Source of the DNA: an uncultured Candidatus Saccharibacteria bacterium
Lineage (GTDB): Bacteria > Patescibacteriota > Minisyncoccia > Phycocordibacterales > XYD1-FULL-46-19
Length of the DNA: 64,000 bases
Reading direction: 5' to 3'
NCBI GenBank assembly: GCA_964355855.1
Contig: CAYHFD010000001.1
Location: 9,921-73,920 of the forward strand
The notes beneath the pieces are model-generated. The model had not been told where the DNA came from and did not search any database. It was given only the letters and a program-made list of their open reading frames with translations. This document shows, piece after piece, positions 3,102-36,270 of this stretch (position 1 is its first letter; each line of letters starts with the position of its first letter). The position numbers were made by a program, and so were the translations under genes.

Positions 3102-4406
3102 ATGCCTACCAGCAAAAAAGGCGTGGGATCAAATAAGGAAGAACTGCAAAGCCCTAAAGGTATGAGGGATTTAATTGGCAATGATCTTTTACACTACCAA
3201 GGTTTTTTTGAAAAGGCCGCCGAAATTGCTTTATATTATGGCTTTACCCCTATTGAAACTCCAATCCTTGAAAAAGAGTCGCTATTTATTCGTGGCGTTG
3301 GTGATGGTACCGATATTGTCGACAAAGAAATGTACACCCTAAAAACTCGCGGGGGCGATCGCTTGGCTCTGCGACCAGAATTTACCGCTTCGGTTATGCG
3401 CGCCTATTTTGAACACGGTATGCAATCTAAACCTCAACCGGTCATGCTTTATAGTCACGGACCGCTCTTTCGTCATGACAACCCCCAACGTGGTCGCTAT
3501 CGCCAACTCTACCAATTTAATTTAGAAATACTTGGCAGTAAAAAAAGTATCGCCGATGCAACTATTATAAAAATAGCTTCGCTTATTCTAACTGAAGTTG
3601 GCCTAAAAAATCACACTGTTCTTATAAATAGCATCGGCGACAAAGAATCCCAAATTGCTTACCGGCGTGAACTTGTGGCCTACTATCGTAAACACACCAA
3701 AACTATTTGTGCTGACTGCCGTGAACGTCTAAAGATCAATCCCCTCCGTTTATTGGATTGTAAAAACCCCAAATGTGCTGAAATTAAAAATGAAGCACCG
3801 GAAACTATCGCCTACCTTTCCACGGAAAGCAAAGCCCATTTCAAAGAAGTTTTGGAATATCTAGATTCAATGGAAATAAATTACACTATTTCCAGCACCT
3901 TGGTTCGGGGACTCGATTATTACACCCACACTGTTTTTGAAATAGTACCAGAAACGACTGGCGACGAAACACCTTTATCTTTAGGTGGTGGTGGTCGCTA
4001 TGACTATCTAGGTAAAATCCTATCCGGTAAAAAAGATGTTCCCGGTATGGGTATGGCCATTGGGGTTGATCGAGTTATGGAAACCCCGGGTTATTCTTTT
4101 CCCACCCCACGGATTGTTAAAAAACCTAAAGTATTTTTCATTCAGTTGTCGTTTGACGCCAAACTACGTTGTTTTGAAATTATTGAGATATTACGCAAAG
4201 CCAAAATACCTATCGCCCAATCTTTGACCAAAGATTCCCTATCAGCCCAACTTGGCACAGCCGAAAAATTGGGGGTAGCTTACGCTTTGATTTTGGGTCA
4301 AAAAGAGGCCCTAGAAGGCACTGTGATTGTCCGTAACATGGATACCCGCTCTCAAGATACAATTAAAATGGACAAATTGGCTGACTACCTAAAAAAAATA
4401 AAATAG
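3102..4406 (+). CDS. hisS: histidyl-tRNA synthetase (class II)
   Basis: GMRDLIG, TPIETPILE, YTLKTRGGDRLALRPEFTA, RHDNPQRGRYRQLYQFNLEILG motifs; start at MPTSKKG after lepB stop. Confidence 0.9.
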   Translation: MPTSKKGVGSNKEELQSPKGMRDLIGNDLLHYQGFFEKAAEIALYYGFTPIETPILEKESLFIRGVGDGTDIVDKEMYTLKTRGGDRLALRPEFTASVMRAYFEHGMQSKPQPVMLYSHGPLFRHDNPQRGRYRQLYQFNLEILGSKKSIADATIIKIASLILTEVGLKNHTVLINSIGDKESQIAYRRELVAYYRKHTKTICADCRERLKINPLRLLDCKNPKCAEIKNEAPETIAYLSTESKAHFKEVLEYLDSMEINYTISSTLVRGLDYYTHTVFEIVPETTGDETPLSLGGGGRYDYLGKILSGKKDVPGMGMAIGVDRVMETPGYSFPTPRIVKKPKVFFIQLSFDAKLRCFEIIEILRKAKIPIAQSLTKDSLSAQLGTAEKLGVAYALILGQKEALEGTVIVRNMDTRSQDTIKMDKLADYLKKIK

Positions 4407-14951: not shown

Positions 14952-15927
14952 GGCTGACCTGCTCCGTAGAAAACACCTAACCCCAGACAATGGTTACATT
15001 GTGGACGAACAATCGAAGCATCATCTCACGACACTGCGACCAATATGACCGGGCTCGCAAGAACAAACCAAGATTGCTTTAATCATTGAGTTCACTGTTT
15101 CCCCTTGCCACCGCTGGCCGTAAAGAACCTTGTTGAAATGAGTGGCCATAATTTTCCGCCACTTGCCACTTGGAAGTTTGTCAGTTCGTCTGCCAATCCT
15201 CGGTGGGATAATTGTCCGAATGTTTTTCTCGCGAGCAAAGACATGTGAATGTTCGCTGTCATAACCAGCATCAGCCGTTAGGATCTTTAGGTGAACATTT
15301 TTTTCGGCTTCTTTCACTGCTTTTTCAAAATGAACAATATCAGGATATGGACCACGGGATGGCACTCCCGCTAGGACGAGATGGGTATGGCAATCAGAGA
15401 CAATACCAACCTTTGGATAGCGAGTATATGTTGTCAATTGGTACTTTTCTTCTCCTTTAGCTCTTCTTTTCACAAAATAAGTACTAATATGGTGCGATTC
15501 GAAGCCGGTGCCATCAATAGCCGAGAGTTGGATATTTTTTTGCATAATTTTTCTCTGAACCGCAAGAGCGAGAATTTCTTTAATGAGTTTGTCTAAGGTA
15601 TCTTTTTTGGTTAGCCGATAGGCGGCTTTTTGGAGGGTGGTGAAGTGTGGAATTTCGTTTAATTCGAGTATTTTCCTTAGATCGCTGGAGTCCTGCAATA
15701 TTTCTTCGATTCCGCGATAATCAGTAGTAAAAAATTCTTTCAGCACTAAGCAGGCGACTAGTTGATGTTGAGTAAACTTCTTGGGACTTTTGAGATGCCG
15801 AAATGGTGGTAATGCTCGCTTGGCGGTGGCGTAGGCAACCACCGCAATAGCGTTAGGTGATTTTGATGTTTTTATTACCCAAAGTATATCATGGGCTGTC
15901 TATGTTTTCTACGGAGCAGGGCTGACC
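14952..15927 (-). mobile_element. IS4/IS5-like insertion sequence with 17-bp terminal IRs and 8-bp target-site duplication
   Basis: CTGCTCCGTAGAAAACA at 14960-14976 and its reverse complement at 15903-15919, each flanked by direct GGCTGACC (14952-14959; 15920-15927). Confidence 0.75.
15021..15842 (-). CDS. DDE transposase (IS4/IS5-like)
   Basis: IDGTGFESHH ... ILTADAGYDSEHSHVFAREKNIRTIIPP catalytic DDE context. Confidence 0.85.
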   Translation of the reverse strand: MVAYATAKRALPPFRHLKSPKKFTQHQLVACLVLKEFFTTDYRGIEEILQDSSDLRKILELNEIPHFTTLQKAAYRLTKKDTLDKLIKEILALAVQRKIMQKNIQLSAIDGTGFESHHISTYFVKRRAKGEEKYQLTTYTRYPKVGIVSDCHTHLVLAGVPSRGPYPDIVHFEKAVKEAEKNVHLKILTADAGYDSEHSHVFAREKNIRTIIPPRIGRRTDKLPSGKWRKIMATHFNKVLYGQRWQGETVNSMIKAILVCSCEPGHIGRSVVR

Positions 15928-15987
15928 CAATTTCTGAAATAGTGGCTGATTTCATTATCTACCACATTATCCATTTCTAGAAGCTGA

Positions 15988-16191
15988 TTACATCCCTGAC
16001 CACTCCTTTTCACACTGTGCGCAACGATTATTGCCAGTATGTTCAAAAATATCAGTAAACTTGTTTGGCTGATATATTTTTTCATCTTCATTCCAGAAAA
16101 ATTCGTCATCTATAATTGTTTCTACTAACTTGCGTTCACAACCACAAAATTGACAAGAATGTTTTGGAAAAATTATGATTTCTTCATCCAT
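15988..16191 (-). CDS. small zinc-ribbon protein (CxxC...CxxC)
   Basis: CQFCGCERK ... CAQCEKEW. Confidence 0.4.
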   Translation of the reverse strand: MDEEIIIFPKHSCQFCGCERKLVETIIDDEFFWNEDEKIYQPNKFTDIFEHTGNNRCAQCEKEWSGM

Positions 16192-16226
16192 ATTCTGATC
16201 ATTGATCGAATCTAGAAGTAAGTCAA

Positions 16227-16994
16227 CTACTTTAATCGGTAGACGCCATCACCAGCGAATTCAAGATAGCCCTTATCTCTCAAGAATTGTAATTGCTGTC
16301 TGATTTTCGGTTTTATATTTTTGTTTTCAGGATGAATGACGGACAAATCTTGCTCAAAGACATACATGTCTTGCAGGGTAAACTCTTTTTTGTTAAGAAA
16401 ATCTATACAATTCATGATATCCAAAATCCAACCTTTTACATCAGCTTTTTTAACTTGTTTGAGAAATACTGTTTTCTGCCATTTTTCCAATACATCTTTT
16501 TTATATAGTTCTTTCCCGTTCTCAATATAAAAAATTTGTCCTGCTTTTGGTATTTTAGAAAAAAGTATGTTTGAACCGACCCAACCAGCTCGTCTAGCAC
16601 TTTCTGCGAGTGGTTTTCTTTGTTCGATAATTTCGGATACAAAAAAGTGTTTTGGTACAACAAAAAAATTATTTACATCCCACATCTCAACCATATAGCC
16701 CATGAAAAAGAAATTTGGTTTTTGAGGTGAATTAATTCTCTTTATCATCTGAGAATAAGCACCCGCAGAAACCTTTTTGCCCATCTTACCTTTTTTGGAT
16801 TTCAGTTCAAAATCTTCCGCACATTTTTTACAATAAAAATCTGCAACAGGCTTGTTGTTGTCATAATTGTAAATATCATTGCCACAGCTTGGGCAATAAA
16901 TTTCATTAAGAACCCAAGCCTCACTCAACACTCTAGCTTTTTGAGAATAACTTGTGTAATTGTTAGCTAATTTTGTGTCAAAATTTAAGTTCAT
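16227..16994 (-). CDS. DpnI-like (Dam-replacing family) methyl-directed type IIM restriction endonuclease
   Basis: Co-linear resemblance to R.DpnI as I recall it: SYSQKARVLSEAWVLNEIYCPSCGN, PVADFYCKKCAEDFELKSKKG, PNFFFMGY, KPLAESARRAGWVGSNI, C-terminal winged-helix IRQQLQFLRDKGYLEF. Confidence 0.75.
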   Translation of the reverse strand: MNLNFDTKLANNYTSYSQKARVLSEAWVLNEIYCPSCGNDIYNYDNNKPVADFYCKKCAEDFELKSKKGKMGKKVSAGAYSQMIKRINSPQKPNFFFMGYMVEMWDVNNFFVVPKHFFVSEIIEQRKPLAESARRAGWVGSNILFSKIPKAGQIFYIENGKELYKKDVLEKWQKTVFLKQVKKADVKGWILDIMNCIDFLNKKEFTLQDMYVFEQDLSVIHPENKNIKPKIRQQLQFLRDKGYLEFAGDGVYRLK

Positions 16995-16997
16995 AAA

Positions 16998-17840
16998 TTA
17001 TGCCCCCAGTTTGTCTGGTTTCTTCAAGCTCTTTTTTTCATCAGATTTTAACTTCCTCTCAATTTTTTTTATGTCTTCTTCCGCCGGTAATTTTTCAGGA
17101 GTAATTCCTCGACTCAAAAGTGTTCTTCGGACACTTCTATTGTTTGTAATATGTTCTTCGGAAATAGATTGTTCACTTCTCAAGTTTTTACTTTTTGAAT
17201 TAAAAATAGTGATCTCTGTTGCAAAATCCTTCGCTTTTAGAATTATTGTTGGTTGAAAATCAGCAAGCGCACGACCACTAGGAACACCGAGCCGATTTTT
17301 CATTTCTTGAGTTGTATACCCAAATAATGCTTTATCTCCCTTACTTCGTATGAGTGCAAAATTTTTATCACTCCCCGTTTGTTGAAAAATAACACCTGAC
17401 AACTCTTTTTCTGTCTCTGTCAATTTTTGCCGAGCGTTTAGTCTTTCAAATTCTTGTATTCGTTTCTCAATAATTTCAAATTTTCTTGTTTGCACCGCAA
17501 AGTAATTTTGAGCAAATGCAATTTCTTCTTTTCTTGGATCGCCATTTTGAGCAATTAGGTAGCAGGCATACCGAGTAAGCATGATATCTGGAACCTCCTT
17601 TTGCGCACCTTTTGGCATTTGGATCGTTTTCCCGACGTCGGCAAAATGATCATTTACACTGTGACCCGTTACCTCACAAGCAGTTTTTGCCTTTGAGATA
17701 ACAGAGATGAAATTATCCCATTTTGTATAACCCAATAACTGTTGTAAATCACGGGCAAGCCAAAATTCAACACCTTCGCTAGATCTATTGGCATAAGATT
17801 CAAAATTACTTATAAGCGATTTAATAATTTCTATTTTCAT
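16998..17840 (-). CDS. DinD-like (DNA-damage-inducible protein D family, Bro-N-like) protein
   Basis: GVEFWLARDLQQLLGY..W.NF, TRYACYLIAQNGDPRK, FAQNYFAVQTR closely parallel E. coli DinD blocks. Confidence 0.7.
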   Translation of the reverse strand: MKIEIIKSLISNFESYANRSSEGVEFWLARDLQQLLGYTKWDNFISVISKAKTACEVTGHSVNDHFADVGKTIQMPKGAQKEVPDIMLTRYACYLIAQNGDPRKEEIAFAQNYFAVQTRKFEIIEKRIQEFERLNARQKLTETEKELSGVIFQQTGSDKNFALIRSKGDKALFGYTTQEMKNRLGVPSGRALADFQPTIILKAKDFATEITIFNSKSKNLRSEQSISEEHITNNRSVRRTLLSRGITPEKLPAEEDIKKIERKLKSDEKKSLKKPDKLGA

Positions 17841-17879: not shown

Positions 17880-18113
17880 CTTTGGCAATATTGGTAATGG
17901 TCGAAAGTGTAGGTGATACATAGGTCGGACCCATGGAAATGGTGACCCTCACAGCCTGGGAAACCCCCACCCGCCATCGCAAGCTCAGGCGTTGCGGGGC
18001 AGGCACGGTTTTCCGACGAGCTTCGCTCTGCCTTCCTCCACGGGAAAACAGGTGTTTTCCCGACCCCTTTCCCCTGTAGGGTCACAGTTTTTTCACTGTG
18101 TTTTAAAAAACTG
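17880..18113 (-). ncRNA. GC-rich structured element G (homolog of 27480-27702), immediately 3' of tRNA-Glu
   Basis: GC-rich in AT-rich genome; shared blocks CCTGGGAAACCC, GGTTTTCC, CTCCACGGGA.A.CAGGTGTT.TCC with element R; 20-bp perfect inverted repeat 18074-18124 includes the tRNA 3' end. Confidence 0.4.
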
Positions 18114-18185
18114 TGACCCTACAGAGAATCGAACTCTGATTACCGCCTTGAAAAGGCGATGTCCTAACCGTTAGACGATAGGGCC
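18114..18185 (-). tRNA. tRNA-Glu (anticodon TTC)
   Basis: GGCCCTATCGTCTAACGGTTAGGACATCGCCTTTTCAAGGCGGTAATCAGAGTTCGATTCTCTGTAGGGTCA folds as cloverleaf; loop TTTTCAA. Confidence 0.85.
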
Positions 18186-24913: not shown

Positions 24914-24995
24914 CTCGCCAACCCTCCTCTTTTGTTTTTTCGCTCAGTATCTTCAATTAAGGTATCTTATACGGCAAAGGATAGCAAGCACACAC

Positions 24996-25026
24996 GAAAA
25001 AGGCCTCCATCACTGGAGGCTTTTTG
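24996..25026. terminator. intrinsic terminator immediately 3' of tRNA-Phe (minus strand)
   Basis: GGCCTCCA-TCAC-TGGAGGCC hairpin flanked by A5/T5 runs on both strands. Confidence 0.65.
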
Positions 25027-25391
25027 TGCTTGGGGGCGGGTTCGAACCGCCGACCCTTCGCTCTTCCAGAGCGTTTGGACTATATCATCATCCGTTCTGC
25101 TAATAAGCAGAGTTAGGAGGCAGGCGCTTCCCCTCAACTACGCTCGGGGTAAACCCTAAGCTAATCAAGAGTACTCCCTTTCGGGATAGTCTCTACACCT
25201 TCCGAGCACCACTTTTGAATTCTAGAATATTCTAAAAACCAAAAGTGGTGCTCGGCTTGGCTCGGGATTGTCCAAAAAATTAATCTTGGGTGTCCCCCGA
25301 ATTCACCTACTTTTTCGATCCACTTTACAATAGAAAGGCCCGAAGTTTTTTAGGGTCCAGGCGAATGCTCTACCAACTGAGCTACCCAAGC
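25027..25391 (-). tRNA. tRNA-Phe (inferred anticodon GAA) interrupted by a ~282-nt group-I-like intron in the anticodon loop
   Basis: 5' exon 25359-25391: GCTTGGGTAGCTCAGTTGGTAGAGCATTCGCCT; 3' exon 25027-25076: GAAGAGCGAAGGGTCGGCGGTTCGAACCCGCCCCCAAGCA; halves form perfect acceptor (GCTTGGG/CCCAAGC), anticodon (TTCGC/GCGAA) and T stems. Confidence 0.75.
25077..25358 (-). ncRNA. group I intron (self-splicing ribozyme candidate) within tRNA-Phe
   Basis: 5' exon ends in U, intron ends in G; contains GAGACTATCCCGAAAGGGAGTACTC (P7/GAAA-tetraloop-like) and GATGATATAGTCC (P7') reminiscent of the Tetrahymena/cyanobacterial cores. Confidence 0.65.
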
Positions 25392-27479: not shown

Positions 27480-27702
27480 TGATTTTCTGGCTGGTACCCC
27501 AGGCTCCTGGGAAACCCTGCTCCTCCGCTAAAGCTAGCGGCACGCGGGCGGTTTTCCCAATCCTTCCCCGCCTGCCATCGGCTGCGCCATCAGGCAATGG
27601 CGGGCAGGCTCCACGGGAGACCAGGTGTTCTCCTCTAAGCCGTTCGGCACGAGCTAGGCCGACCCCACTCCCTGCCGGGGGCACAACTCGTTCCCCTCGT
27701 TG
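27480..27702 (-). ncRNA. GC-rich structured element R (homolog of 17880-18113), immediately 3' of tRNA-Arg
   Basis: Shares ordered sequence blocks with element G; helix CGGGAGACC-AGGT-GTTCTCC covaries with CGGGAAAAC-AGGT-GTTTTCCCG of G; 14-bp inverted repeat GCCGGGGGCACAAC/GTTGTGCCCCCGGC includes tRNA 3' end. Confidence 0.4.
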
Positions 27703-27774
27703 TGCCCCCGGCAAGAATCGAACTTACATCAGCTCGTTAGGAGTGAGCCGTTCTATCCATTGAACTACGGGGGC
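27703..27774 (-). tRNA. tRNA-Arg (anticodon CCT)
   Basis: GCCCCCGTAGTTCAATGGATAGAACGGCTCACTCCTAACGAGCTGATGTAAGTTCGATTCTTGCCGGGGGCA; one A-C mismatch at base of anticodon stem. Confidence 0.75.
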
Positions 27775-28602: not shown

Positions 28603-28910
28603 CCCACACACTAACTTTTGTTTTGGAAAAGTTCTAAAGTTTTACCAATACGCTTGAGAAGCTGATTACGCGCTTGCCCCCTTAATTTTAAACTACTCTC
28701 CCTGTTGCGCGCCTCCTCCTCAATCGAATAAGCTTCATAATACAGTAGTTTAAACGGGCGTCTAGATTTGGTTGAACGAACTTTTCCTAAATTATGTTCT
28801 TCTAGACGTTTCTTTAAATCATTGGTTGAGCCAACATAAAGATCATGGTCTTTTAAACTTCCTAAAATATACAAGAAGAACATAATTTGAAACAAAAGTT
28901 AGTGTGTGGG
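28603..28910 (-). mobile_element. miniature GIY-YIG cassette with perfect 20-bp terminal inverted repeats and 5-bp TAAAC target duplication, inserted in a duplicated tRNA-Gly 5' fragment
   Basis: CCCACACACTAACTTTTGTT at 28603-28622; exact reverse complement at 28891-28910; flanks GAAGAAGCAACCATTTTGCCACTAAAC and TAAACTAATTCCGCA copy the tRNA-Gly 5' region (28449-28481). Confidence 0.7.
28611..28883 (-). CDS. GIY-YIG nuclease family protein (COG2827-like, ~90 aa)
   Basis: YILGSLKDHDLYVGSTNDLKKRLEEHN = GIY..YVG...R..EH catalytic motif; ATG at 28883 (TTG at 28895 alternative). Confidence 0.8.
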   Translation of the reverse strand: MFFLYILGSLKDHDLYVGSTNDLKKRLEEHNLGKVRSTKSRRPFKLLYYEAYSIEEEARNRESSLKLRGQARNQLLKRIGKTLELFQNKS

Positions 28911-35813: not shown

Positions 35814-35820
35814 CGATATA

Positions 35821-36270
35821 ATTGCCTTTTGTTTATAAGCCGAATTCTGTACCGAGCACCACTTCTGACACCCACATTCTTATTAGAAAACACTAAGTAA
35901 GTGTAAATTGATTTGCTAGTGAAAGTTAGACAGTCAGTAGCAGAAGTGGTGCTCGGCGATAGCCATTTATCTGGGATGACTGTCGCCAGCCACCTCAAGC
36001 GGCACAAACCAGTGCAAAGCACTGGAGTACGACCTTGCATTCGGGTAGGTATTTTGCCGTTTCAATCTTCAGGTTTCCCTGAAGCTTCACCCCAAAGGGT
36101 GCCTTTGCCTCTCGGCTAGGGCGTCACTGCTCTCAACCCTCGGATTGCTCCGGACAGGCGTTACCTGCTACCTTGTTCCACCATCTAAAGATAGTGGGAA
36201 TGTTCGGACTTTCCTCTATCAGCCCGCCCAATCGGGCAAACTGACAGTAGCTATCCAACAAAAGGCAACC
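35821..36270 (-). ncRNA. rnpB: RNase P RNA (bacterial type A-like)
   Basis: Minus-strand: GAGGAAAGUCCGAAC (P4 5' strand), GGUAACGCCUG, GGGUGAAGC, ACAGAAUUCGGCUUAUA (P4 3' strand); P1 GGUUGCCUUUUGUU pairs with AACAAAAGGCAAUU. Confidence 0.8.

Follow-up and report, generated by a model that had tools for sequence, protein, structure and literature searches.

What occupies the space directly behind two transfer RNA (tRNA) genes is the question raised by a stretch of 64,000 nucleotides (nt), hereafter the window, from the genome of an uncultured Candidatus Saccharibacteria bacterium (assembly GCA_964355855.1, contig CAYHFD010000001.1, positions 9,921 to 73,920). A first-pass annotation, made from the letters alone, described two homologous GC-rich elements directly 3' of tRNA-Glu and tRNA-Arg, and this description is borne out: the blocks shared by the two stretches are far beyond chance, and the GC content of the elements is 0.575–0.585, against about 0.31–0.43 in the surroundings. 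Both stretches are true copies of a family of protein-less, structured elements of roughly 150–250 bases, here called type A, which is apparently undescribed and has so far been found only in Patescibacteria (the candidate phyla radiation). Type A is likely to be a mobile, integrative element that restores the end of the gene it enters, and we favour, with the balance of probability modestly on its side, the reading of each window stretch as an integrated copy of a small (about 150–250 nt), protein-less, site-specific insertion element. What was observed directly comprises the family with its structure, the uniform arrangement of its copies, the targets that it occupies, its presence or absence at orthologous sites and its accumulation in tandem.

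The two window elements, which are described here on the minus strand unless stated otherwise and whose parts are listed in Table 1, share several exact blocks. ACACCTGKTYTCCCGTGGAG occurs exactly twice in the window, with 0.01 occurrences expected, GGGTTTCCCAGG is matched exactly in both elements, and a GCCTGA..GATGGC block is likewise common to both; the two elements fold better than shuffled controls (z = -5.1 and -3.7), and this is so on either strand. As had been claimed, each element folds back onto the 3' end of its tRNA. The repeat of 20 bp at tRNA-Glu stands, with the last ~12 nt of the tRNA and 9 nt of trailer forming the 5' arm of the left hairpin, while the second repeat is one of 15 nt at 27673–27713 and not of 14 bp at 27667–27707. 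Neither tRNA end recurs anywhere else in the window, and the idea of a larger island whose limit is a far-off third copy of a tRNA end was rejected on that ground.

The blocks proposed at first pass to be shared in order are real, but their order differs between the two elements. A hairpin of about 40 nt (GCCTGCCC..GCCTGA..CGATGGC..GGGG), here called block C, interrupts the hairpin-2 loop of the Glu copy, whereas the Arg copy has it behind CGTGGAG, and because of this difference in position it is regarded as a nested insert rather than as part of a collinear scaffold. It consists of an outer stem, CCTGCC/GGCRGG, an inner covarying stem and the loop GCCUGA, has been seen only inside type-A cores of this lineage, at two positions (also in contig L096, about 16085–16125, minus strand), and looks like a still smaller nested insertion module. 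In the same way, the homologous element of ~220 nt that had been described is real as an element, but only a core of about 85 nt is homologous, the remaining length of the window copies being made up of nested hairpin inserts. The nested nature of block C had been missed at first pass, as had a direct third copy of the tRNA-Glu 3' end, found at 17937–17949 on the side of the element away from the tRNA. The two other nested hairpins of the Arg copy (27523–27544 and 27630–27651) are direct repeats of each other, 73% identical (CGTGCCG..GCTT(T)AG.GGAG), and form another small repeated module.

Further copies were sought by pattern. A scan of 185,579 GTDB species genomes for a compact 32-nt form of the core returned 29 compact-form matches, all in metagenome-assembled genomes (MAGs) of Patescibacteria (Saccharibacteria, Yonath-, Kaiser- and Nomurabacteria, Paceibacterota and Minisyncoccia); the remaining matches fell in genomes of 57–74% GC and looked like chance. 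A scan of metagenomes with a different pattern gave 31 further true loci, several of which are one locus assembled independently. About 60 further loci with the ~85-nt core are known elsewhere, the true matches all lying in Patescibacteria MAGs or in AT-rich metagenome contigs, and within the window no third copy of the core is recognized by a covariance model built from 34 members. This model scores the other loci at 78–97 bits and adds a few more divergent copies, some with a different hairpin-1 loop; variants with a CGGGAG loop instead of ACACCTG occur. Among IMG/VR viral contigs, a first scan for the type-A core gave three matches, all GC-rich or coding and judged on inspection to be chance, and a second gave seven, only one of which was scored, weakly, by the covariance model, and this one proved on inspection to be without the conserved blocks. 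Phage and plasmid collections, searched with the core by blastn, gave no match.

The core has a fixed order: RGGAAG-GGGGTCGG, hairpin 1, CGTGGAGGAAGG, an optional variable hairpin, hairpin 2 and AGGAGTGAG. Hairpins 1 and 2 are alike, lie in direct orientation on the same strand and covary, and each is followed by a purine-rich tail (GGGAAAAC..GTTTTCCC-GTGGAGGAAGG versus GGGAAAACC..GGTTTCCC-AGGAGTGAG); the linkers of the core are purine-rich and invariant. The compensatory change noticed between the two window copies in the first hairpin holds for the family, as two variable pairs are distributed AU:20/GC:13 and AU:26/GC:7 among 34 members. Over the stems as a whole, 94% of cells are paired and 43 are double-change cells, compared with 16 ± 2.6 in shuffles, none of 500 of which reached the observed value. 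Core lengths range from 83 to 140 nt and vary without regard to reading frame. Because the stems covary, the linkers are invariant and the length variants ignore frame, the core is no gene but a structured nucleic acid, as the first-pass annotation had supposed. Coding sequence was rejected on the same lengths and on overlapping open reading frames (ORFs) that are not conserved; a 9-codon ORF after GGAGG is destroyed by 1-nt length changes between copies. At locus L069 (about 3511–3643, plus strand), an AT-rich insertion of ~56 nt is found in the 5' arm and loop of hairpin 1, and the core thus tolerates or attracts further insertions.

The elements match no RNA family in Rfam, and they are conserved in other genomes. 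At the gathering threshold, the Rfam 15 matches in the whole window are limited to tRNAs, RNase P and a single group I intron away from the elements, and permissive E-value scans of both window elements and of the canonical copy L016 returned only generic hairpins, such as microRNA precursors, far below threshold. No Rfam 15 family, with HEARO/omega RNA, group I and II introns, tmRNA, Y RNA-like, 6S and SRP among them, matches the elements at or near its gathering score. Full-text literature searches found no description of such elements, only papers on CTXphi and integrons that serve for comparison below.

Around the core, every informative locus shows the same layout on the tRNA strand: the gene ending in Y, a spacer Z, an inverted copy Y', the core and a displaced Y. 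Y is the intact gene end, contiguous with the gene, and Z is usually a terminator-like hairpin containing tracts of A and T, otherwise a short loop. Y' is an inverted copy of the 10–25 nt beside the junction, which in most tRNA-linked copies continues into GGAATCGAAC, the complement of the T-loop, and the displaced Y is a second, direct copy of the gene end on the far side. Y' and the displaced Y border the core, here 85–215 nt, and can pair. Median lengths over 35 distinct loci are 16 nt (range 7–52) for the direct repeat and 18 nt for the match of Y' to the left copy. At tRNA genes, the direct repeat begins at the boundary of T-loop and T-stem and stops 0–7 nt past the tRNA end, and the right junction of tRNA-linked copies is fixed, with ...GTGAGAT followed by A, AGCGAAGCG or nothing and then by the 3' strand of the T-stem. 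The motif GCGAAGC, an unusually stable DNA mini-hairpin, is recurrent at the right junction. In several tRNA loci (e.g., L016, L037, L064 and L084), a further terminator-like hairpin follows the right copy. Copies are solitary or stand two to three in tandem at tRNAs. At the tRNA-Glu of L064, the right copy and the sequence after it are arranged like the sequence after the tRNA itself in L096 and L098, and because of this resemblance the inserted unit is taken to be Y-Z-Y'-core, with the old gene end shifted to the right.

Most targets are tRNA genes, many different ones, with the junction in the T-loop. Among protein genes, an EF-G-like GTPase gene and a GT4 glycosyltransferase gene are entered at their 5' ends and rplL at its 3' end, and both of the genes entered at the 5' end are encoded on the other strand from the element. 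In the EF-G-like case, the displaced fragment reads MERDYSLPFVRNFGIIAH up to the point where the element interrupts it; in the glycosyltransferase case, the repeat is about 50 nt long and ends at the start codon; and in rplL, AGAKVTLK-stop is duplicated. The two gene-end copies of rplL differ in six codons, all synonymously, those of the glycosyltransferase gene in Thr ACA versus ACC, and those of the EF-G-like gene in Arg CGC versus AGA, with Ile versus Lys at the junction as the sole non-synonymous difference. Because differences that are almost all synonymous would not be expected of an unexpressed, drifting fragment, the two copies probably diverged under selection in separate lineages. 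By this sequence comparison, the working gene end probably travels with the element, or with a block carrying the element, which would explain why the repeats stop at gene boundaries. Synthesis of the inverted copy on the spot, by fold-back or target priming, is disfavoured by the mostly synonymous differences at protein genes, which argue that at least those copies were imported; a local origin of the inverted copy may apply to the first insertion event.

Comparison of orthologous sites bears on whether the elements come and go. A close comparison genome is that of Candidatus Vogelbacteria RIFOXYD1_FULL_44_32, whose TsaD is 83% identical and whose syntenic contig, L096/L097, covers both loci. 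There, tRNA-Glu and tRNA-Arg are identical to those of the window, and no core follows either. At tRNA-Arg, the native flank GTACCAG is recognizable on either side of the window insertion of ~205–225 nt. L096 itself has a type-A copy at its intron-containing tRNA-Phe, absent at the tRNA-Phe of the window, and the hairpin-2 loop of that copy holds the same nested hairpin as the window Glu copy. The window tRNA-Gly(ccc) is empty, and a tRNA-Gly beside lepA is occupied in L020 and L041. Synteny at the downstream gene of 253 amino acids (aa) is not conserved among relatives, and the TsaD neighbourhood was usable for the empty-site comparison instead. Some insertions are, to judge from sequence, old, for example those of L047 and L025, which have a homologous spacer hairpin with compensatory changes and an intact core.

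The tRNA-Phe gene of the window offers a special case. Directly after it (24985–25034, minus strand) stands a long hairpin without core, made up of the final ~8 nt of the tRNA, a GC stem set between an A-tract and a T-tract, and an inverted copy, 10 nt long, of the tRNA end (TGTGTGCTTG). This hairpin is either what is left of a deleted element or a 'vehicle' hairpin on its own. No inverted copy of the tRNA end was found downstream of the window tRNA-Val, tRNA-Ser or tRNA-Gly or of the empty tRNA-Arg in L096. That the inverted copies are native terminators overlapping tRNA ends is disfavoured by this lack; the tRNA-Phe hairpin keeps the idea partly alive. The tRNA-Phe(GAA) gene itself (25027–25391, minus strand) has a group I intron within its anticodon loop and was missed by ARAGORN, and the orthologous tRNA-Phe of L096 has the same intron region.

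Within the material studied, which comprises the 64-kb window and loci of 8–21 kb, type A is non-autonomous: it encodes no protein, and none recurs beside it. When ORFs of at least 80 aa from about 30 loci were clustered all against all, no recurrent neighbour family emerged, only housekeeping synteny. A Pfam scan of 38 window ORFs (110 aa or more) found no recombinase except an IS5-like DDE transposase, and integrase, HUH enzyme, IS110, TnpB, Y1 transposase and IntI-like protein are all missing among these ORFs. Of the two explanations put forward at first pass, that of small mobile GC-rich modules gains support from the core standing at many tRNAs and at three kinds of protein gene, from the duplicated gene end and from the absence of the element at the identical tRNAs of the sister genome.

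How such an element might move can be proposed by analogy, and a mechanism based specifically on a single-strand hairpin is put forward tentatively. The element would move or integrate as a folded single strand, the tRNA-sense strand, in which Y' would pair with Y into a stem imitating the duplex target beside the structured core. A recombinase encoded elsewhere would act where the base of this stem adjoins the core, swapping one pair of strands with the chromosomal target, after which replication would finish the insertion. The outcome of strand exchange and replication would be the order gene-Y-Z-Y'-core-displaced Y, in which the native gene end would have been pushed to the far side, there to decay. 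Spread to the same gene in other lineages would probably be aided by homologous recombination between the conserved gene on the left and the short copy on the right. The folding of the tRNA-sense strand, the paired hairpins, which are like a pair of protein-binding sites, and GCGAAGC at the right junction lend weak support to this model. It is also conceivable, if unlikely, that the target is set by base pairing, the core recruiting a host enzyme and the arm Y' defining the site by complementarity, as in a natural, reprogrammable system guided by a hairpin of single-stranded DNA (ssDNA) or RNA; this reading was kept because unrelated targets are combined with one conserved core.

Several points weigh against the favoured reading or its mechanism. 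As no recombinase was identified, the mechanism is argued from topology, and no excised or circular form was seen. The targets have no common sequence (the T-loop, CGCCCCGCC in the glycosyltransferase gene and GCATCAATGTGGGC in the EF-G-like gene), and, being unrelated, they make a classical sequence-specific recombinase hard to reconcile with one core. The tRNA-sense strand has the better folding energy in 28 of 38 elements, and the stem G-T wobbles are on that strand, a preference that is weak since G-rich strands fold better anyway. In the Glu copy, the complementarity of Y' to the left copy is 100% and extends over the 9 nt of trailer that are not part of the tRNA, while the right copy has decayed, which suggests that selection acts on the left hairpin once the element is integrated or that this hairpin was synthesized locally at insertion. 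The spacer hairpin of the window tRNA-Phe is homologous to both tRNA-Phe spacer hairpins of L096, suggesting that a spacer hairpin may be derived from the locus or may persist without a core, unlike the simple picture of an element that carries Y-Z-Y'. Finally, the search patterns required an intact core, so that the members are no measure of whether the core is conserved over its flanks beyond what a young selfish element would show.

The topology has a close parallel in CTXphi and other Xer-exploiting integrative elements (IMEX). The strand exchange proposed above is the documented route of CTXphi, and integron attC sites obey a similar logic. In the ssDNA genome of CTXphi, two dif-like sites about 90 bp apart face opposite ways and together form a forked hairpin, and its integration leaves one functional dif and two non-functional copies (PMC3089051). 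Type A resembles CTXphi and IMEX in its oppositely oriented attachment copies, about 90–130 nt apart, which can pair into a stem, in a product consisting of one functional site with inverted and direct non-functional copies, and in a recombinase not encoded by the element. It differs from them in that its targets are not dif but the ends of tRNA and protein genes, varying from copy to copy; that the 'genome' between functional site and inverted copy is a loop of 11–60 nt or a terminator; and that the spacer from inverted to direct copy is a conserved, covarying core, with no phage genes. The enzymes of CTXphi and IMEX are XerC/XerD acting at dif, and the likeness of type A to them is one of topology. 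With the attC sites of integrons, type A would share recognition that depends on single-strand hairpin structure, and hairpin sequences vary widely in both. The R''/R' core boxes of attC, which stand at the base of a bottom-strand hairpin with extrahelical bases, have the consensus RYYYAAC/GTTRRRY, and the tRNA-linked inner stem ATCGAAC/GTGAGAT matches them by eye at 6 of 7 positions each, with pairing through tandem G-A. In contrast to attC, these box-like motifs occupy the inner and not the outer part of the stem, and neither the window copies nor those at protein genes have them; there is no integron platform, cassette array or ORF cargo, no IntI-like protein occurs among the scanned window ORFs or the clustered neighbours, and gene ends rather than attI are targeted. 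A classical miniature inverted-repeat transposable element, a DDE transposon derivative with terminal inverted repeats of its own and a short duplication of constant size, also differs, since the inverted repeats of type A are target-derived and locus-specific and its duplication varies in length from 7 to 52 nt.

It is unlikely that the core is primarily a functional structured noncoding RNA made with or beside the tRNA, as a mimic of the top-half acceptor/T-arm minihelix or as a 3'-processing or stability element, a role that would be compatible with mobility. Such an RNA would fit the strong covariation of the hairpins, the invariant single-stranded linkers and a GC-rich element in an AT-rich genome; read-through is plausible in the window, where neither copy has a T-run terminator between tRNA and element; the stem of at least 12 bp formed by Y' and the displaced Y matches exactly, in tRNA-linked copies, the acceptor/T stack of the neighbouring tRNA and ends in its discriminator; and the L047/L025 insertion appears to be old and vertically inherited, its core being intact and its spacer showing compensatory changes. 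Against it, the sister genome has the identical tRNA-Glu and tRNA-Arg without the element, a terminator-like hairpin with a T-run intervenes between tRNA and element in most loci, the same core occurs at the 5' ends of protein genes on the opposite strand, no conserved promoter is visible and no Rfam family matches. The tRNA-linked noncoding RNA or processing element offered at first pass therefore does not hold as the primary explanation, given the intervening terminators, the protein-gene copies in either orientation and orthologous tRNAs that function without the element. A guide RNA, in which Y' (10–25 nt) as guide and the core as scaffold would programme a recombinase or nuclease encoded elsewhere, is improbable. 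Like IS110 bridge or seek RNAs and the omega RNAs of IscB/TnpB, type A joins a structured scaffold to a target-complementary segment, in the order guide then scaffold on the tRNA-sense strand; the complementary segment always covers the junction-adjacent bases, whatever the target, one core is joined to many target-matched arms, and an IS110-family transposase in the related contig L095 indicates that such enzymes exist in the lineage. Yet no DEDD recombinase, IscB or TnpB was found beside the copies by neighbour clustering or among the scanned window ORFs, neither HEARO nor any other Rfam family matches, and bridge and seek RNAs come from the noncoding end of an element that itself carries the recombinase, the guides of bridge RNAs being bipartite, for target and donor, in two internal loops, whereas type A has one contiguous inverted arm outside the core. 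Moreover, in omega RNAs the flank itself serves as the guide, in place of the inverted copy seen here, the restored working gene would be cleaved as well by a Y'-guided nuclease, and in most loci a terminator precedes Y', with no promoter evident.

Two further rivals invoke known mobile elements. That the copies are relics, or cis-mobilizable attL-attR mini-elements, of integrase-encoding islands or prophages, with the core as the arm region of an attachment site, is very improbable. Integration in the T-loop, a regenerated tRNA 3' end and a displaced direct repeat are the classic signature of tyrosine-integrase islands, and type A shares all three with tRNA-targeting islands and prophages, together with accumulation in tandem at one tRNA; the window Glu copy, in addition, borders a variable island (Bro-N, DpnI, IS5-like transposase). 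Unlike such islands, type A measures 150–250 nt in total, and no copy has an integrase or kilobase-scale cargo genes; viral contigs of IMG/VR and phage and plasmid collections hold no match; the core has covarying stems, pointing to selection on single-strand structure, and not repeated double-stranded protein-binding sites; the inverted target copy is foreign to lambda-type attachment sites; and one core stands at many unrelated targets, protein-gene 5' ends included. Least probable of all is a non-autonomous element of the IS200/IS605 type, palindrome-associated or REPIN-like, moved as ssDNA by a Y1/HUH transposase encoded elsewhere, with hairpins 1 and 2 as subterminal binding hairpins. The features common to both are small size, the lack of a protein, extragenic position after genes, a single-strand structure that is probably important and two similar hairpins on the same strand, each with a similar purine-rich tail in type A; about 10 nt separate the foot of hairpin 2 from the right end, with GCGAAGC recurring at the junction, and Y' can pair with either junction, which recalls the pairing of guide and cleavage site in IS608. 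Elements of that type, however, make no duplications and insert 3' of a fixed site of 4–5 nt, while type A has long, variable, target-derived repeats of 7–52 nt at unrelated targets, a gene-end-restoring segment without precedent in that family, and no Y1 transposase among the scanned window ORFs or beside the copies. Type A combines features of tRNA islands and of hairpin attachment sites in a gene-free package and otherwise falls within site-specific integrative elements.

Table 1. Coordinates of the two window elements, their parts and other features. Positions are those of the window unless a contig is named.
Feature	Position	Strand	Basis or remark
tRNA-Glu(ttc), target gene	18113..18185	-	ARAGORN; Rfam tRNA 61.7 bits; 100% identical to tRNA-Glu of the sister genome (L096)
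Glu element, left hairpin	18074..18124	-	inverted repeat of 20 nt, 100% complementary; minimum free energy fold
Glu left hairpin: gene-end copy Y and trailer	18105-18124	-
Glu left hairpin: 11-nt loop	18094-18104	-
Glu left hairpin: inverted copy Y'	18074-18093	-
Glu element, core	17955..18073	-	covariance model; hairpin repeat; family alignment and covariation
Glu element, match to covariance model	17949-18075	-	79.9 bits, E=6e-20
Glu core: GGGGTCGG	18059-18066	-
Glu core: hairpin 1, then linker GTGGAGGAAGG	18041-18062	-
Glu core: variable hairpin	18015-18030	-
Glu core: hairpin 2, arms	18007-18014, 17959-17966	-
Glu core: nested block C hairpin, ~38 nt, within hairpin-2 loop	17967-18004	-
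Glu element: GCCTGA..GATGGC block	17973-17990	-
Glu element: exact match of GGGTTTCCCAGG	17955-17966	-
Displaced direct copy of tRNA-Glu 3' end (CTGTGAGGGTCACCATTT), slightly decayed; right end of Glu element	17937..17954	-	repeat search; sequence
tRNA-Arg(cct), target gene	27702..27774	-	ARAGORN and Rfam; 100% identical to L096 tRNA-Arg
Arg element, left hairpin	27673..27713	-	inverted repeat of 15 nt, 100% complementary; fold; 11-nt loop
Arg left hairpin: tRNA 3' end and CAAC	27699-27713	-
Arg left hairpin: inverted copy Y'	27673-27687	-
Arg element, core, heavily decorated	27506..27672	-	covariance model; exact shared blocks
Arg element, match to covariance model	27500-27647	-	16 bits, E=0.011
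Arg core: GGGGTCGG	27659-27666	-
Arg core: first nested hairpin	27633-27658	-
Arg core: hairpin 1, then CGTGGAG	27616-27633	-
Arg core: nested block C	27567-27608	-
Arg element: GCCTGA..GATGGC block	27574-27595	-
Arg core: hairpin 2, 5' arm	27550-27558	-
Arg core: second nested hairpin	27518-27548	-
Arg core: hairpin 2, 3' arm and CAGG	27506-27517	-
Arg element: exact match of GGGTTTCCCAGG	27506-27517	-
Displaced tRNA-Arg end remnant (AGCCTGGG)	27498..27505	-	comparison with empty site in L096
Native flank GTACCAG beyond Arg element	resumes at 27497	-
tRNA-Phe(GAA), exons	about 25359-25391, 25027-25066	-
Group I intron in tRNA-Phe(GAA)	25058-25361	-	Rfam Intron_gpI, 54.3 bits
Type B copy, L096	16262-16400	-
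Type B copy, L041	1506-1529	-
Type B copy, L025	6336-6359	+
Type C copy, L096	9041-9089	-
Type C copy, L098	6495-6542	+
Type C copy, L064/L091	after right copy
Bro-N domain protein	16998-17840	-
DpnI-family restriction enzyme	16227-16994	-
IS5/IS4-type DDE transposase	15021-15842	-

Other conserved elements share these sites. A second, unrelated structured core, here called type B, begins with a covarying hairpin, AGCAAGNCG-YCTGCK-CGNCTTGCG, has the same design of tRNA end, spacer hairpin, inverted copy and core, and accompanies type A, in tandem, at tRNA-Phe and at tRNA-Gly. Relatives of the window have, behind the terminator of tRNA-Glu, yet another conserved element, type C (GTCGGAG...GACCGGGTCTGGAAAATTCAC...GTGAATTATTGTGGACCACAA, with its end near GCGAAGC), which is missing from the window itself.

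Among neighbouring genes, a small variable island (15021–17840, minus strand) lies directly downstream of the Glu element, and the corresponding place in the sister genome holds a different defence island (SNF2/PLD and an Eco57I-like methyltransferase); the scanned window ORFs are otherwise housekeeping genes. The IS110-family transposase of L095 (7197–8234, minus strand; DEDD_Tnp_IS110 and Transposase_20) stands beside a homologue of the 253-aa gene of the window, and no type-A core was found near it. Small stand-alone ORFs with a GIY-YIG nuclease domain (77–94 aa) recur near tRNA genes of this lineage, at 28611–28895 of the window (minus strand), in L092 (5643–5897) and in L094 (3202–3435). 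Elsewhere in the window (35820–36266, minus strand), a bacterial class A RNase P RNA scores 103.4 bits, barely above the gathering score, and is 447 nt long against a model of 367 positions, the extra length including an insertion of ~90 nt near the 3' end.

Type A accounts for two features of such genomes, GC-rich 'orphan' segments and duplicated tRNA ends, by which the annotation of tRNA flanks and of genomic-island boundaries is confused. With one core and many target-matched arms, it makes the choice of target by a nucleic-acid arm alone testable, which is of relevance to programmable DNA insertion. Were the target indeed set by base pairing, the element could be aimed at any conserved gene end while repairing the gene that it interrupts, at least two unrelated cores (A and B) would share one vehicle design, and a new class of integrative element would be at hand. 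If the favoured reading is confirmed, type A would be a very small site-specific mobile element that enters essential, conserved genes without inactivating them, through the combined device of a target-mimicking hairpin, a replacement gene end and a structured core. Patescibacteria, with their tiny genomes and few recognized mobile elements, would then be hosts to dedicated parasites or passengers of tRNA ends, accumulating there in tandem.

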